Of a stretch of DNA of 17,296 nucleotides, positions 1-16,586 are shown piece by piece. The DNA lies in the UHGV virus genome UHGV-0304874. One strand, written 5' to 3'. A program made the translations under genes and the position numbers. Numbering within the stretch: position 1 is the stretch's first letter; the number at the start of each line of letters is the position of its first letter. The notes beneath the pieces are model-generated. The model made no database searches. It was given only the letters and a program-made list of their open reading frames with translations, and was not told where the DNA came from. Source of the stretch: a virus.

Positions 1-1141
1 TATTTCTAATGAGGTTGTCAATGTATAACAAATTCTTAAAATCTTCTTCGGGAATTTTTTGTTCGTCTAAATCACTTTGGGATAGCTCGTTTATTAATGA
101 TGATATGTCATGTGTTAGAGTGTGTTTTTTTAATTTTGAGAGGTCAGATTTGATAATGTTATTTTTAGATAGGCTGTACTCATCTGTTATAAAGTTTTGA
201 ATCATCATCTCTCTTTTTGTGGATTTTTGATTCCCTCCAAAAGAGAGTGTGCAGCCTAATTCAAGGGCTAGTTCTGCCATTAATTCATCAAAGCCTTCTA
301 TTTCTACCCAATAAACTTTCTCTTGACCTAGAAGCCTAATTAGTTCTGGTGGGATGGCGTCATTTTGTCTTACGCACCAATATACCCCATTCCGTAGGTA
401 ATCGTCCTGTTTTAATAAATGTTTTAAAACATCCATGATAGAGCTGTCATTGCCAGCATAACCAACAAAAATAATCCCGTATTCTTTAGTGAATTCAGTT
501 AGTTTTTCACGAGTGTTACCTTCTAATGACTCGGTTTCTTTTAAAGAGCTTTTTATGCTATCAAATAGATAATCACCATGTAATTTTATTATTTTTGGTC
601 TTGAAGAAGTAATTGAGACGCCTTTAATTGATGAGTCATGTGCGCATAATAATGGTCTGTCAGAAGAAAATTGATAAAATGCTTCATTTATTAAATCGTC
701 AAAATTTGTTGTGAAGACAGTATCAAAAAACTTTGATTCAAATAGTTCAACGAGATAAGCATATCCAATTGAAGGTAATTTTTTGTCTACTTGAAGCTCA
801 ACAAATCTTCTGCGTTGAGATGGGAGATCAAATTTCTTTTCAAAAAGAGAGGAGTATTCATTGTTTGGGTCGTACCAGACTGGATGGTTTTTGGATAGCC
901 ATTTTTTAGCTTCTTCGGCATTGATATATTCTTCATTGGATAGTCTTGTGTATATCTCTTCTCTCCATTTTGCAACTAACTCTTGACCAGTTTTTATTCC
1001 TGATGTAACGGATGCACCAGCACCAAGAAAGAGTGAATAGTTAGGTGATGTACCTGATTTGATTTTTATATAATCAGCTAAATCTTTAACTGTTCTTTTT
1101 TTGGCAACCAGTTGTTCCTTGGTAGTATCACGATCAGACAT
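1..1141 (-). CDS. SIR2-like (sirtuin-fold, predicted NAD+-hydrolysing) domain protein, N-terminal ~380 aa; 3' end lies beyond the window start
   Basis: Manual minus-strand translation from ATG (rc of 1139-1141), preceded by GGAGGG, is open to position 2 with no TTA/CTA/TCA triplets in frame. Protein begins MSDRDTTKEQLVAKKRTVKDLADYIKIKSGTSPNYSLFLGAGASVTSGIKTG. Motifs: LFLGAGAS (Gly-rich loop), VFTTNFDDL (Asn), KIIKLHGDY (His), IIFVGYAGND. Not in the ORF track because it has no in-window stop. Confidence 0.6.
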   Translation of the reverse strand, partial: MSDRDTTKEQLVAKKRTVKDLADYIKIKSGTSPNYSLFLGAGASVTSGIKTGQELVAKWREEIYTRLSNEEYINAEEAKKWLSKNHPVWYDPNNEYSSLFEKKFDLPSQRRRFVELQVDKKLPSIGYAYLVELFESKFFDTVFTTNFDDLINEAFYQFSSDRPLLCAHDSSIKGVSITSSRPKIIKLHGDYLFDSIKSSLKETESLEGNTREKLTEFTKEYGIIFVGYAGNDSSIMDVLKHLLKQDDYLRNGVYWCVRQNDAIPPELIRLLGQEKVYWVEIEGFDELMAELALELGCTLSFGGNQKSTKREMMIQNFITDEYSLSKNNIIKSDLSKLKKHTLTHDISSLINELSQSDLDEQKIPEEDFKNLLYIDNLIRN

Positions 1142-1293
1142 TTTCCCTCCATAAATTATGCTGTGTGAAATAAGAATAATCCTAGGCATGGCTATTTTTA
1201 CATGAAATTCAATGGGTTTTCGTTTTTCTTATTTGCATTTTGTGACTGAGATCAAGCTATGAGGGAGAAATGCTTTTTTATTGTTCGCTAGAG

Positions 1294-1303
1294 GCTAATT
1301 AGC
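1294..1303. promoter_or_regulatory. Perfect 10-bp palindrome GCTAATTAGC upstream of the SIR2-like gene; possible operator
   Basis: Self-complementary 10-mer read directly from the sequence, in the AT-rich region between the SIR2-like gene start and cos. Confidence 0.2.
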
Positions 1304-1446
1304 TTGTACTAATAGTTTATGATGTACCATAGCGTTGAATGATTTTGCATGCATTTGTCAGATGCTTACTAATGTTGTTATGTCAGAGCTGGTGCGCTTT
1401 AGGTTATTTCATGCAACTGCATTAAAACCGACCCATGAAGTGGGCG

Positions 1447-1465
1447 GGCGAGGCGGGGAAAGCAC
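1447..1465 (+). other. cos: cos site: 19-nt cohesive-end sequence GGCGAGGCGGGGAAAGCAC, the P2/P4-type cos as recalled
   Basis: Exact 19-mer present as a GC-rich island in an AT-rich intergenic region, on the far side of Q from P as expected for the joined genome ends of a P2-type prophage. The identity with the P2/P4 cohesive end is from memory, not a database check. Confidence 0.55.
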
Positions 1466-1598
1466 TGCGCGCAATGATGTCAGTTTGAGGGCATCAGGCA
1501 TGGGGACACTACACAGTTTCATTTTTGTTATTAATTGTTTATCATATAAGTGTTTGTTTTTTGAACGGCATGTCGTGTGCTATATGGAGTGAATAGAA

Positions 1599-1868
1599 GT
1601 GACTAAATTTGACAAAAAAAAAGCAATTTCTATTTTAACAGAAAAAAAAGCCTTGCTCCCATGTCATCGGTGTGGAAATTCAAAGTTCATCATTTTGGAT
1701 GGCATATCATCACTTCCATTAATGGAAAATATGGAAATGATTGGTAGTATTGTTGTTGGCGGAATGAATGCTCCTGTATTACATGTGGCATGTGAGAATT
1801 GTGGTGCAGTTACTTCACATTTGCTTGGGGCACTTGGTTTAATGCCGGAGATTAAATCAAATGACTAA
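1599..1868 (+). CDS. Small four-cysteine (CxxC...CxxC, zinc-ribbon-like) protein, 89 aa, unknown function; first gene of a two-gene cargo operon
   Basis: ORF with GTG start 9 nt after GGAG (1586-1589). Two CxxC pairs (PCHRCG and ACENCG) about 43 residues apart. The last codons overlap the next gene start by 8 bp (ATGACTAA). AT-rich compared with the phage backbone. Confidence 0.5.
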   Translation: MTKFDKKKAISILTEKKALLPCHRCGNSKFIILDGISSLPLMENMEMIGSIVVGGMNAPVLHVACENCGAVTSHLLGALGLMPEIKSND

Positions 1869-2331
1869 GGATGTTTTTTTCTCTGATGAAGGTAGTGGTA
1901 AAAAAAGTGCTGTCTTGCATGGGGCGCAGGTTACAATAAACCCTGATTCGCAATTTACAAAAAAGATAATTAGGCAGACTGAGGTTGATGTTATTGTGAT
2001 AAGTGATGATAAACTTCATATAATTTTGACGAATTGCTTATCTAAAATTGCATCATTAAACCGCTGGTCAACACCTTTGGGTATTTTAATTACCTTGGCG
2101 GTAACTATGTTAACCACAAATTTTAAGAATTTTATTCTTCAGGATTCTGTGTGGGAGGCTGTTTTCTGGATGCTTATTTTTTTTAATATTATCTGGTTGG
2201 TGAAAAACATTCCATATAGACACTTATTTTTAACTGTTTGTCATTCTATAGGGGTTCGTAAAGATAAAAAAAGAATTAGTGATGTATACCACATTATAGA
2301 TATAATTAAACAAGGTGATACACGCTTTTGA
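1861..2331 (+). CDS. Predicted membrane protein, 156 aa, with a soluble N-terminal ~65 aa and two hydrophobic helices; second gene of the two-gene cargo operon
   Basis: ATG at 1861, 10 nt after GGAG (1847-1850), overlapping the upstream stop. Hydrophobic segments PLGILITLAVTMLTT and AVFWMLIFFNIIWLV. No motif I recognise. Confidence 0.5.
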   Translation: MTKDVFFSDEGSGKKSAVLHGAQVTINPDSQFTKKIIRQTEVDVIVISDDKLHIILTNCLSKIASLNRWSTPLGILITLAVTMLTTNFKNFILQDSVWEAVFWMLIFFNIIWLVKNIPYRHLFLTVCHSIGVRKDKKRISDVYHIIDIIKQGDTRF

Positions 2332-2364
2332 TTTAATATCAATATTTGATTGAGTATATAATAA

Positions 2365-2387
2365 AGCCGCCTGAGTTTATGGCGGCT
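2365..2387. terminator. Rho-independent terminator hairpin between the cargo operon and Q; most likely terminates the leftward P-Q transcript, possibly bidirectional
   Basis: Perfect 7-bp stem AGCCGCC / GGCGGCT with a 9-nt loop. On the minus strand it is followed by the U-rich run UUAUUAUAUA. It sits 21 bp past the Q stop codon. Confidence 0.6.
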
Positions 2388-2407
2388 AATATAGAGTGTG
2401 TGCTAAG

Positions 2408-3427
2408 TCATAATGTGTATTTGTTGAATCTAATTATTTCTTCGCCAACCCATTCATTAAGGGCAATAAAGCGAGATTGAATAGGAGTAAGCTCATTGCG
2501 GACAAAGACCTTTGCCACTTTCTCAATATCACCCAGCGACCCGACGTTCTCCGGCTTGCCGCCCATCAACTGAAAGGGGATGCGGTGCGCGTCCAGCAGG
2601 TCAGCGGCGCTGGCTTTTTTGATATTAAAAAAATCGTCCTTCGTTGCCACTTCACTGAGCGGGATAATTTTAATGCCGTCGGCTTTCCCCTGCGGGGCAT
2701 AGAGAAACAGATTTTTAAAGTTGTTGCGGCCTTTCGACTTGACCATGTTTTCGCGAAGCATTTCGATATCGTTGCGATCCTGCACGGCATCGGTGACGTA
2801 CATGATATATCCGGCATGCGCGCCGTTTTCGTAATACTTGCGGCGGAACAGCGTGGCCGACTCATTCAGCCAGGCAGAGTTAAGGGCGCTGAGATATTCC
2901 GGCAGGCCGTACAGCTCCTGATTAATATCCGGCTCCAGCAGATGAAACACGGAGCCGGGCGCGAAGGCTGTCGGCTCGTTGAAGGATGGCACCCACCAGT
3001 AAACATCCTCCTCCACGCCACGGCGGGTATATTTTGCCGGTGAGGTTTCCAGTCTGATGACCTTACCGGTGGTGCTGTAACGCTTTTCCAGAAACGCATT
3101 ACCGAACACCAGAAAATCCAGCACAAAGCGGCTGAAATCCTGCTGGGAAAGCCACGGATGCGGGATAAATGTCGAGGCCAGAATATTACGTTTGACGTAA
3201 ATCGGTGAGCTGTGATGCACGGCAGCACGCAGGCTTTTTGCCAGACCGGTAAAGCTGACCGGTGGCTCATACCATCTGCCGTTACTGATGCACTCGACGT
3301 AATCCAGAATGTCACGGCGGTCGAGTACCGGCACCGGCTCACCAAAGGTGAATGCCTCCATTTTCGGGGGGCTGGCGGTCATTGTTTTTGCCGCAGGTTG
3401 CGGTGTTTTCCCTTTTTTCTTGCTCAT
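2408..3427 (-). CDS. Q: Portal protein (P2 gpQ-like)
   Basis: 339-aa ORF starting MSKKKGKTPQPAAKT, recognised as P2 Q. Its ATG overlaps the P stop by 1 nt (TGATG). The last ~25 codons are noticeably AT-rich. Confidence 0.93.
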   Translation of the reverse strand: MSKKKGKTPQPAAKTMTASPPKMEAFTFGEPVPVLDRRDILDYVECISNGRWYEPPVSFTGLAKSLRAAVHHSSPIYVKRNILASTFIPHPWLSQQDFSRFVLDFLVFGNAFLEKRYSTTGKVIRLETSPAKYTRRGVEEDVYWWVPSFNEPTAFAPGSVFHLLEPDINQELYGLPEYLSALNSAWLNESATLFRRKYYENGAHAGYIMYVTDAVQDRNDIEMLRENMVKSKGRNNFKNLFLYAPQGKADGIKIIPLSEVATKDDFFNIKKASAADLLDAHRIPFQLMGGKPENVGSLGDIEKVAKVFVRNELTPIQSRFIALNEWVGEEIIRFNKYTL

Positions 3428-13813: not shown

Positions 13814-14341
13814 ATGCAGCATTTAAAAAATATTACTGCGGGTAATCCAAAAACTGTTGCCCAATATCAACTGACAAAAAATTTTGATGTTATCTGGTTA
13901 TGGTCCGAAGAGGGAAAAAACTGGTATGAGGAAGTAAGTAATTTTCAGGAAGACACGATAAAGATTGTTTACGACGAGAATAATATAATTGTCGGCATCA
14001 CCAGAGATGCTTCAACGCTTAACCCTGAAGGTTTCAGCGTTGTCGAGGTTCCTGATATTACCTCCAACCGACGTGCTGATGACTCAGGTAAATGGATGTT
14101 TAAGGATGGTGCCGTGATTAAGCGGATTTATACGGCAGATGAACAGGAGCAACAGGCAGAATCACAAAAGGCAGCTTTACTTTCCGAAGCTGAATCCGTG
14201 ATTTTGCCGCTGGAACGCGCTGTCAGGCTGAATATGGCGACGGATGAGGAACGCAGCCGACTGGAAGCATGGGAACGCTACAGCGTTCTGGTCAGTCGTG
14301 TGGATCCTGCAAATCCCGAATGGCCGGAAATGCCGCAATAA
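13814..14341 (+). CDS. G: Tail fibre assembly chaperone (P2 gpG-like)
   Basis: 175 aa, starts 4 nt after the H stop; position and length match P2 G. Confidence 0.88.
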
Positions 14342-14509: not shown

Positions 14510-14887
14510 ATGGATATACATGCAAAAAGAGTTGGCAGTCCACTTTATAAAATTATTATGTACTTAAATAAGTATGAAGAAGATACACTGGAAGACATAA
14601 AACTTCAGTTTCTTTTAAAAAATTTAAAAACTCATTTCAAGAAACTGTTTTATATGATTACTTACATTAATAAAATTCAAAAAGATGCTGAGTTCATCAG
14701 AAAACATGATGCAACATCAATTGTCAGCATTAGTGCTATTGAGTATTGCTATTATAAAATCAGCACGATATGGGATATTGCATATCAGATAGCTGATAAA
14801 TTAATTTTTCCAACTAAAAAAATGGCAACAAATATGATTACCTTGAAAATCATTTCCAGCAATATGCACAGGAATTTCCAGATTTGA
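14510..14887 (+). CDS. Hypothetical protein, 125 aa, AT-rich cargo in the G-FI (Z/fun-position) island
   Basis: ATG 5 nt after GGAGT (14500-14504); strongly AT-rich; no recognisable motif. Confidence 0.4.
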   Translation: MDIHAKRVGSPLYKIIMYLNKYEEDTLEDIKLQFLLKNLKTHFKKLFYMITYINKIQKDAEFIRKHDATSIVSISAIEYCYYKISTIWDIAYQIADKLIFPTKKMATNMITLKIISSNMHRNFQI

Positions 14888-15035
14888 ATTTAAAATGGTA
14901 TAAGGACTTTAATAAAATAAGATAGTTCATGGAGGGATAACAGTAAATCCTTATTATGTCAACGATGATAATATTAAAACAAAGATTTGTTTCCAAGCAT
15001 ATGACTCTGATCTAAACGATCTGATTCAACCTCAT

Positions 15036-15455
15036 ATGATGTATTCAAATAGATTCAATAACAATATTAATTTTGCTGATTACTATTTTACCTTTTATAC
15101 TCATCTTCTCTATTCATATCTTTTTGATTTTTTTGATTTTGTACTTCTTGAGCTAAACAAAGATAAATTACATGATTTAGACAATCTTATTCTTGATGAT
15201 ATACCGCACAAATTGTTTGGTGTTCATCATGAAACATGGTTGTTATCTGATGTTGATCAATTTATGAAAATTACAAGAGAAATGATTTCCCTACAAATAG
15301 CTGATGGTTGTTTAAATAAAATTGAGAAAATACCCTCAAGTGATATTGAACATTTTTTTAACAACTTTCCATTTTGTCTTATGACAAAGGTTAGCTCCGG
15401 AGATTGGGTATTGGTTGAGGATAAAGCGGCTGAAACACAGTCATCGGACACTTAA
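15036..15455 (+). CDS. Hypothetical protein, 139 aa, AT-rich cargo; weak translation signals, possibly a gene fragment
   Basis: ORF with tandem ATG ATG at 15036 but no clear Shine-Dalgarno; the frame is open upstream to 14916 without a start; acidic Asp/Phe-rich N-terminal half. Confidence 0.33.
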   Translation: MMYSNRFNNNINFADYYFTFYTHLLYSYLFDFFDFVLLELNKDKLHDLDNLILDDIPHKLFGVHHETWLLSDVDQFMKITREMISLQIADGCLNKIEKIPSSDIEHFFNNFPFCLMTKVSSGDWVLVEDKAAETQSSDT

Positions 15456-15472
15456 ATTTTTTTTGTGCCAAA

Positions 15473-15615
15473 GTCTACTCCTCGCTCGTCACAGGCTTTG
15501 GCATTCGTTTCAACAACCAAGTGATAGCATATATTGTGACCTGCACCCCGTTGATTCATACATCCTCGATGTAAGCAATCCCTTGAGAACGTCCACTCCT
15601 CGCTCTTAGCAGATC
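15473..15615 (+). repeat. Pair of 15-bp direct repeats (GTCTACTCCTCGCTC at 15473-15487, GTCCACTCCTCGCTC at 15601-15615) in the gap between the AT-rich ORFs and the nuclease-like ORF
   Basis: Read directly: 14/15 identical, 128 bp apart, at the composition boundary between two cargo blocks. Confidence 0.4.
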
Positions 15616-15749
15616 ACACGGTTCTTCAAACGATCCGCTTCGTACCAGAAACGAACTTTTATCTCAAATTTGAACCTTTTAGTGGATGACGACGTTTGTG
15701 TCTTCAAGTAGTCTTAAAAGCATGCGGATAGTGCATAGGAAAAGCAGAA

Positions 15750-16586
15750 GTGATCGATGACCCACTACCAGAAAACTGGCAAGACCTCCAGACAGGGGTC
15801 CAACGTATATTCCGTAATGTTGGCTTGTTTGCAGAAGTCGAGGTCGATTTAGAAACCCCGCGTGGCTCGGTGAATGTGGATGTTCTTGCTACAGATGTTA
15901 GGAGCGTGGACAAAATCAGATACATTGTGGAATGCAAAAACTGGGGTAGTTCTATACCACAGACGGTGGTCCATTCGTTCACCACGGTAATGCATGAAAC
16001 CGGGGCTAATATTGGATTTATTATTTCAAAGCACGGGCTTCAGCAGGGTGCTAAACAGTACACTCAAAACACCAATATTATTGGGATGACATACCTTGAG
16101 TTCCAAAAAAGGTATTTTGAGGCTTGGTGGAATAGATACTTTTGTCCACGTATCGGTGATGCTGCAGACGAACCGCTTCAGTACGTCGAACCAATCAACT
16201 CTAAACGAGATCGCGAATACGCCAAGCTAAGCCTTCAAGCACAAGAGAAGTTCGATCAGTTAAGGCAAGAGAAAGGTGTATCAGTAATGGTTCTCTCTAT
16301 GCTCAATTACAAGTTTATGTCGAAAGCATTAAACACTGGTAACTTGCTGGAAGTCCCAAATAATCTGGATGATTTTAAGAACAGAGTTCTCTCCCGAATA
16401 TGTCCTCACATTGAATGGCAATGTGATACGTACAGAGAGCTGCTAGAGCTCATCTTGCAATACTTATCAGTCACAAAAGCAGAGTTTGATGCAATATTTG
16501 GTCGGGCCATCTTTGAACCGCCAAGTAGTATCACGGGGGTTACGGCTGAAGGTCCCCCTTTAGACGATGGTATTTATCATCATTAG
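15750..16586 (+). CDS. Predicted PD-(D/E)xK nuclease, Mrr-like catalytic domain at the N-terminus, with a ~150-aa C-terminal region of unknown function
   Basis: 278-aa ORF with GTG start 9 nt after AGGA. N-terminal pattern GLFAEVEVDLETPRGSVNVDVLATD ... YIVECKNW ... GFIISKHGLQQGAKQY resembles the Mrr-type restriction endonuclease catalytic core (acidic residues plus E-x-K). Confidence 0.5.
   Translation: MIDDPLPENWQDLQTGVQRIFRNVGLFAEVEVDLETPRGSVNVDVLATDVRSVDKIRYIVECKNWGSSIPQTVVHSFTTVMHETGANIGFIISKHGLQQGAKQYTQNTNIIGMTYLEFQKRYFEAWWNRYFCPRIGDAADEPLQYVEPINSKRDREYAKLSLQAQEKFDQLRQEKGVSVMVLSMLNYKFMSKALNTGNLLEVPNNLDDFKNRVLSRICPHIEWQCDTYRELLELILQYLSVTKAEFDAIFGRAIFEPPSSITGVTAEGPPLDDGIYHH

Follow-up and report, generated by a model that had tools for sequence, protein, structure and literature searches.

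SIR2 NADases are among the commonest effectors of bacterial immunity, and the sensing of infection is the main question about them. NAD+ is lowered upon infection by GsSir2/Ago, DSR1, DSR2, and SIR2-HerA. In DSR2, a tail-tube protein is captured by the solenoid, and the SIR2 pocket is opened through allostery (PMC11850899). ThsA has tetramerisation and helical interfaces, and Avs5 and KomC are deposited as helical SIR2 assemblies.

The interval between gpA and gpQ was defined as the P2 old/tin hotspot by Rousset et al. 2022 (PMC9122126). SIR2-TPR, as the SIR2 protein with a C-terminal TPR superhelix is called here, is absent from the P2 systems tested in that study, and the three newly validated P2 systems include no SIR2 (PMC9122126). 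The only SIR2 in the tested list is pFR88 from the P4 hotspot, WP_001133507 (PMC9122126). This 452-aa protein is ThsA/PDC-S25-like and different from SIR2-TPR. One SIR2-TPR allele, WP_124831363, appears in Table S5 as a lone 'SIR2_2' locus at the P2 hotspot (PMC9122126). In the literature, no paper was found that names, describes, or tests the SIR2-TPR family, and none on PDC-S65 or four protein accessions.

SIR2-TPR is very probably of a known kind, that of single-protein SIR2 abortive-infection effectors, and belongs to no named system. With an Argonaute-type SIR2 domain, a plain TPR array, no NTPase and no partner, it offers a compact case for the gating of a sirtuin by a repeat domain. Practical interest is modest, as the gene is rare and already part of the hotspot catalogue. 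What is gained is an architecture that is now defined and a mechanism open to testing, and not a new principle.

A lone gene between gpA and cos

The DNA analysed here, referred to as the window, is a stretch of 17,296 nucleotides from the virus genome UHGV-0304874. Apart from cargo, its ORFs form the P2 late-gene set, including portal, terminase, scaffold, capsid, lysis, baseplate, and tail fibre. At the edge of the window, a minus-strand frame extends from 1141 to 1 over 380 codons without a stop, and its translation begins with MSDRDTTKEQ. The ATG is located at 1139-1141 and is preceded by GGAGGG at 1145-1150. The features of this region are the following.

1-1141, minus strand: 5' 44% of the SIR2-TPR gene (codons 1-380 of 864), a stop-free frame with the remainder past the window edge
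1145-1150, minus strand: Shine-Dalgarno-like GGAGGG, 3 nt upstream of the ATG, found by sequence inspection
1447-1465, plus strand: P2 cos cohesive-end sequence, an exact 19-nt match and the boundary of the gpA-side hotspot

A sequence-only reading of the window had described the frame as open from 1141 to the window edge, and had placed the gene at the P2 old/tin hotspot next to cos. The open frame of 380 codons is confirmed, and both statements about the location hold. The P2 19-nt cohesive end GGCGAGGCGGGGAAAGCAC is found at 1447-1465 as an exact match with a chance expectation of 0.01, 306 bp upstream of the SIR2-TPR gene start. In the near-identical Escherichia coli genome NZ_CP055048.1, no gene other than SIR2-TPR lies in the interval from the replication endonuclease gpA to cos, with the portal gpQ beyond. 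It is thus a variable gene between A and cos/portal Q, and part of the cargo of the P2 gpA-gpQ (old/tin) hotspot. Two divergent E. coli alleles that were inspected occupy the same site, each as a lone gene with gpA on one side and the portal gene on the other, and one of them is part of an otherwise decayed prophage. On either side of cos, at approximately 1411-1472, the similarity to other genomes is interrupted. The first ~2.5 kb of the window have a GC content of 32-39%, compared to ~55% in the phage structural genes and core, and its low GC content (33-39%) marks the SIR2-TPR region as acquired cargo. A promoter scan of 1142-1446 gave no sigma-70 match above chance, and promoter and terminator matches in window positions 1-2500 were no more numerous than in shuffled sequence. 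Therefore, no promoter was assigned to the gene.

Window positions 1-1141 are 100% identical to E. coli SWHEFF_58 (NZ_CP055048.1), where the same ORF comprises 864 codons and encodes WP_074530306.1, annotated as 'SIR2 family protein'. Read in this genome, the upstream extension proposed by the earlier reading yields both the full protein, with 864 aa, a SIR2 domain and a TPR superhelix, and its neighbours gpA and cos. The gene is rare, being present in 19 of 5,426 complete E. coli genomes (0.35%), and these copies range from 100 to 81% in DNA identity. Natural E. coli alleles at this one locus are 77-99% identical at the protein level and differ mostly in the TPR half. Alleles with 99%, 87%, and 77% identity to the reference include WP_124831363 and WP_001735437. 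The natural alleles are a ready set for the mapping of specificity. The window is a mosaic, with a best full-length match of 97-99% identity among complete E. coli genomes, and its best matches differ in cargo.

Only 380 codons of the gene are visible in the window, and elsewhere in the window a cargo ORF has lost 7 bp compared to a close relative. The copy could in principle be a truncated or frameshifted remnant beyond the edge. This is extremely unlikely, as an intact allele matches the visible part with 100% identity, the copies in all 19 complete genomes carry intact annotations, and purifying selection on the SIR2 half is strong (dN/dS 0.05). In the earlier reading, a stop or frameshift just past the edge had been named as an observation that would contradict a functional gene, and it is seen in none of the 19 complete E. 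coli genomes with the gene. From this sequence comparison, we infer that the gene of the window is intact beyond its edge.

An intact SIR2-TPR gene occurs in E. coli EC3 (NZ_CP060979.1), inside a heavily decayed P2-like prophage. In this prophage, gpA is frameshifted, and the terminase as well as most head and tail genes are deleted. This suggests that the SIR2-TPR gene was retained by selection after the death of the phage.

No conserved neighbour gene was found in any context examined, namely the E. coli loci, distant homologues, and IMG/VR contigs. The homologues in Aeromonas, Cedecea, and Shewanella each stand alone amid housekeeping genes. As the relatives elsewhere are lone genes as well, SIR2-TPR is considered a single-gene system. 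IMG/VR contains 14 P2-type contigs with the order portal-cos-SIR2-TPR-gpA. These include divergent P2-like phages, in which the portal is ~77% and SIR2-TPR ~67% identical. Seven further full-length copies are encoded in other viral contigs of IMG/VR. In PHROGs, the full-length family corresponds to phrog_14359, which is listed with unknown function.

Domain architecture and comparison with named systems

The visible part of the gene encodes the entire SIR2 domain and the beginning of the C-terminal solenoid.

242-1045, minus strand: SIR2 (sirtuin-like Rossmann) domain, a predicted NADase, residues ~33-300
1010-1024, minus strand: GAGAS glycine-rich NAD-binding loop, residues 40-44, read from the translation and aligned with GAGTS of GsSir2
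698-712, minus strand: TTNFD motif with the predicted catalytic Asn146 and Asp148, read from the translation; GsSir2 has an identical TTNFDD
575-586, minus strand: KLHG motif with the predicted catalytic His188, read from the translation and followed by a conserved loop (residues 189-203)
2-241, minus strand: helical linker and first helices of the C-terminal solenoid, residues 301-380, with AlphaFold2 helices at 308-318, 328-354, and 365-379

The three motifs had been recognised in the sequence-only reading and are all present in SIR2 order, in the contexts FLGAGASVTSG (residues 38-48), VFTTNFDDL, and IIKLHGDY, which far exceeds chance expectation. G40, G42, S44, N146, D148, and H188 are invariant in 44 homologues with identities down to 38%, which extends the earlier observation to the conservation of Asn and His. 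T144, T145, F147, K186, G189, and D190 are likewise invariant in this set. The SIR2 domain proposed at that stage is borne out by profile searches and by the fold of the model. The Pfam family SIR2_2 (PF13289) matches with E=1.1e-14 and 55 bits, relative to a cut-off of 24.5 bits, and a PADLOC SIR2 model matches the 380-residue fragment with E=1.2e-59. Membership in the SIR2 superfamily follows from a fold above the curated threshold together with the Gly loop and the Asn/His pair.

Residues 189-203 (window 533-577, minus strand) are near-invariant in the 44 homologues, yet they form the segment of lowest confidence in the AlphaFold2 model (pLDDT <50). This loop after His188 may be a candidate regulatory or gating loop, or an oligomer interface.

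The AlphaFold2 model was built on the 44 homologues and has a mean pLDDT of 84.5. It consists of an alpha/beta SIR2 domain, the last strand of which ends by residue 281, and an all-helical TPR superhelix at ~308-856 with about 30 helices and a pLDDT of around 90. The two halves differ in conservation. The mean pairwise identity among the 44 homologues is 69% for the SIR2 domain, 49% for the linker, and 31% for the TPR region, and the invariant columns lie nearly all before residue 350. Between two E. coli alleles, the TPR half has a dN/dS of 0.12, compared to the value of 0.05 for the SIR2 half given above. Both halves are therefore constrained, and the C-terminus diverges faster. No direct sign of positive selection was found in the TPR half of these two alleles, as dN/dS is well below 1.

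The C-terminal domain was used as a query in the form of a natural fragment, residues 312-864, against 1.84 billion representative proteins. Nearly all of the 93 matches are proteins of ~850-915 aa, aligned at ~315-860, and the shorter matches that were checked are fragments or TPR-only pieces. Since these matches essentially all have the ~860-aa architecture, the sensor module is specific to this SIR2 family. Effector swapping, i.e., the same TPR sensor with another effector, was considered, and no sign of it was seen among the 93 matches. A search of viral structures in BFVD returned generic TPR/Sel1 proteins only (E>1e-3).

By sequence, the SIR2 domain is far nearer to the Argonaute-associated SIR2 clade than to any other kind. 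The top PADLOC models of the full protein are Aga_SIR2-PNTD1-PNTD2 (198 bits, E=7e-59). In the PDB, the sole sequence-level matches for the SIR2 domain are the Geobacter SIR2-APAZ chains of SPARSA, GsSir2 (E=1.7e-28), and GsSir2 chains are also the top matches in Foldseek (E=4e-10). SPARSA, or GsSir2-Ago (8jkz, 8in8, 8y80), is thus the closest system with regard to the SIR2 domain, both by sequence and by fold, with GAGxS, TTNFDD, and HGD identical. By analogy, NAD+-depleting chemistry is presumably common to both. The similarity to SPARSA is confined to the SIR2 domain of the Argonaute-associated clade, as both the APAZ domain and an adjacent short Argonaute are absent. PADLOC matches to SIR2-APAZ profiles cover only positions 6-281 of 558, 20-346 of 1010, and 15-378 of 876, and APAZ is therefore not covered. 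No Argonaute (MID-PIWI) gene was found near the SIR2-TPR gene, whose neighbours are gpA and cos/portal. Without APAZ and a nearby Argonaute, nucleic-acid-guided sensing in the manner of SPARSA does not apply.

The protein might alternatively be an orphan SIR2-APAZ-like subunit that is inactive alone and requires a partner encoded elsewhere, either an Argonaute or another sensor. In line with this, the SIR2 domain and ~50-80 residues beyond it align to SIR2-APAZ profiles, and a relative in a Vibrio phage is labelled 'pAgo__SIR2APAZ' by DefenseFinder-style annotation. The matches end at ~280-380 of SIR2-APAZ/pAgo models with 524 to 1030 positions, the model is purely helical after residue 308, and a conserved neighbour is missing in the contexts examined, which makes a dependent subunit very improbable.

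In its overall architecture, SIR2-TPR is closest to DSR2 of Bacillus subtilis (8wy8, 8yg1, and others), judged from the predicted model. Both combine, in a single chain, SIR2 at the N-terminus with a long alpha-solenoid at the C-terminus, and DSR2 serves as the working model for a solenoid that activates SIR2 once a phage protein is bound. Foldseek connects the full-length protein to DSR2 with E~1e-8, 12-14% identity, and a TM of only ~0.22, and it reaches DSR2 because of the common layout of SIR2 and solenoid. By sequence, neither a PADLOC Dsr2 match at E<=0.1 nor, with the family profile, a DSR2 PDB chain at E<=1 was found. DSR1 resembles SIR2-TPR in being a SIR2 defence protein from a single gene, the C-terminal region of which is large and non-catalytic, and there is no match to PADLOC Dsr1 (PDLC04166, 1227 positions) at E<=0.1. 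As a control, the P4-hotspot SIR2 protein WP_001133507 touches both PADLOC Dsr1 and Dsr2, and both models are therefore present in the library. Membership in DSR1/DSR2 was rejected on sequence, and the solenoid architecture of DSR2 is shared.

Further candidates were rejected. ThsA of Thoeris gives a weak match of ~21 bits (E=2e-5) inside the SIR2 core of the 380-residue fragment and is missing from the matches of the full protein. A TPR array and not SLOG/STALD forms the C-terminus, and no TIR (ThsB) gene lies nearby. SIR2-HerA (Nezha) does not apply, since no HerA (DUF87) neighbour is present and the NCBIfam model SIR2_antiphage (NF042942) scores 12 bits relative to a cut-off of 500. Avs5/SIR2-STAND was excluded because the protein has no Walker A motif, no NTPase match in Pfam, and no strands after residue 281. 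The full protein contains no other Pfam domain and no NTPase domain. As SIR2-TPR lacks the NTPase/NOD module of Avs5, any oligomerisation would be independent of nucleotides.

The sequence-only reading had mentioned ThsA, DSR1/DSR2, SIR2-HerA, and the SIR2-associated short Argonautes. The SIR2 fold they have in common is retained in SIR2-TPR, but membership by sequence fails for all four. The system type, which had been left open, can be specified as an 864-aa protein with a SIR2 domain and a C-terminal TPR superhelix, without partner genes at the locus. PADLOC PDC-S65 and phage SIR2 proteins of ~630-680 aa are similar to SIR2-TPR in that they share the clade, a helical C-terminus, and the occurrence as lone prophage cargo. 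The PDC-S65 profiles differ in scope, as they match the SIR2 part only, both in SIR2-TPR and in the ~630-680-aa proteins.

Proposed function and related proteins

The lone SIR2-TPR protein is proposed to be a single-gene anti-phage system carried as prophage cargo, in which a TPR sensor would trigger NAD+ depletion by the SIR2 domain. A probability of about 0.68 is assigned to this reading. The analysis establishes the fold, the catalytic residues, the architecture, the conservation pattern, and the autonomy of the gene. Based on analogy to the characterised systems, we infer the candidate NADase activity, the trigger, and the oligomeric state. The SIR2 domain would be an NAD+ glycohydrolase of the SPARSA SIR2 clade, and the C-terminal ~550 residues of the TPR superhelix would replace APAZ and Argonaute as the sensor. 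In the uninfected lysogen, the SIR2 domain would be kept inactive. Upon infection by a competing phage, the TPR array would bind a phage protein or peptide. Binding may relieve autoinhibition or shift the conformation or oligomeric state, enabling the SIR2 domains to assemble into a tetramer or filament, as in DSR2, SPARSA, Avs5, and ThsA. NAD+ would then be hydrolysed, and with falling NAD+ levels phage replication would abort, protecting the lysogen population and the resident prophage. TPR arrays can also be scaffolds without a role in sensing.

A different chemistry is conceivable, in which the SIR2 domain ADP-ribosylates or deacylates a phage or host protein, or a nucleic acid, recruited by the TPR array. 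Such a defence would be targeted and not abortive. The nearest SIR2 relatives are, by a wide margin, NAD+-depleting effectors (GsSir2), and all retrieved defence SIR2 proteins with a solved mechanism are described as NADases. This makes a targeted modification unlikely.

The proposed anti-phage function also has to be weighed against that of a prophage accessory gene without a role in defence, which could modulate the NAD metabolism of the host or act in the maintenance of lysogeny or in virulence. Some of the genes carried at the P2 hotspot do not serve defence, such as partition systems and cytolethal distending toxin (PMC9122126), and the family is annotated just as 'SIR2 family protein' or with unknown function. 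Both the SIR2 clade itself and the combination of effector and variable repeat domain in one protein are features that immune sensors typically show. The same clade recurs in unrelated temperate viruses, i.e., lambdoid phages, Vinavirales, and a Haloferax pleolipovirus, and neither a signal peptide nor a secretion context was found for the protein. Taken with these points, a function outside defence is rather improbable.

A sister family of ~630-680 aa (phrog_23427) has a SIR2 domain of the Argonaute-type clade with 45-55% domain identity. Its helical C-terminus is shorter and barely alignable, and ends in an acidic low-complexity tail. It is encoded by a lone gene that is widespread in lambdoid and many other viral contigs of IMG/VR. 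One member, WP_224720851, is located between the replication and nin genes of a lambdoid prophage in E. coli H3 (NZ_CP010167.1).

Further relatives were found in other viruses. In the tailless Vibrio phage 10N.286.55.B4_PE002 (Vinavirales), a relative of the SIR2 clade adjoins the integrase. This is the gene with the 'pAgo__SIR2APAZ' label mentioned above, and none of its annotated neighbours is an Argonaute. Automatic 'SIR2-APAZ' labels on such lone genes are probably misassignments. The Haloferax virus Halfgib1, a pleolipovirus, encodes a 555-aa relative that is annotated as a TPR protein. It is 34% identical to SIR2-TPR over residues 16-295.

SIR2-TPR and its ~650-aa sister may together represent an Argonaute-independent branch of SPARSA-type SIR2 proteins, in which an NTPase-free TPR receptor would directly sense a phage protein or peptide in place of nucleic-acid-guided sensing. 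This branch would have been spread mainly as cargo of temperate viruses, both bacterial and archaeal (P2-like, lambdoid, Vinavirales, pleolipovirus). The proposal is tentative, with odds somewhat below even. If true, one NADase module would be wired to two unrelated recognition principles, and alleles of the one prophage locus, with their diverging TPR halves, would encode different phage specificities.

Other cargo in the prophage

On the Q side of cos, a low-GC insertion of two genes is located at window positions 1599-2331 (plus strand), between cos and the end of the portal gene Q (2408). In close relatives, just ~400 bp separate the gpA-side cargo gene and Q. The first ORF of the insertion (1599-1868) encodes 89 aa with two CxxC pairs, i.e., a zinc ribbon, and has a weak Lar-like match (E=0.004). 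The second ORF (1861-2331) overlaps the first by 8 nt and encodes 156 aa with one strongly hydrophobic segment at residues 96-118, corresponding to phrog_32870 of unknown function. The two ORFs were considered as partners of the SIR2-TPR gene and rejected, as the pair is distributed independently of it. The pair is present in 8 of 5,426 complete E. coli genomes, only one of which carries the SIR2 gene. Conversely, the SIR2 gene occurs without the pair in 18 E. coli genomes and at all 14 P2-type IMG/VR loci. In E. coli genomes, the pair co-occurs with differing gpA-side cargo. It is listed in Table S5 of Rousset et al. as 'hypothetical + hypothetical' (PMC9122126) and may constitute a small module of its own for defence or exclusion.

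The cargo of the second P2 hotspot (the Z/fun position) is located at window positions 14510-16586 (plus strand), between the tail-fibre assembly gene G (13814-14341) and the tail sheath gene, and has a low GC content of 27-31%. Its first ORF encodes 125 aa and is accompanied by a second ORF and by a gene for a 278-aa protein with an Mrr_cat restriction-endonuclease domain (Pfam E=4e-11, with a weak match to PADLOC PDC-S02). The second ORF (~14884-15455, plus strand) has a length of 192 aa in NZ_CP099752.1. Its frame in the window is shifted after codon 13 by a 7-bp deletion, and only a 139-aa ORF from 15036 remains, which points to either a pseudogene or an error in sequencing. With the gpA-side, Q-side, and Z/fun sites all occupied, there are three sites in this prophage with cargo that may serve defence.
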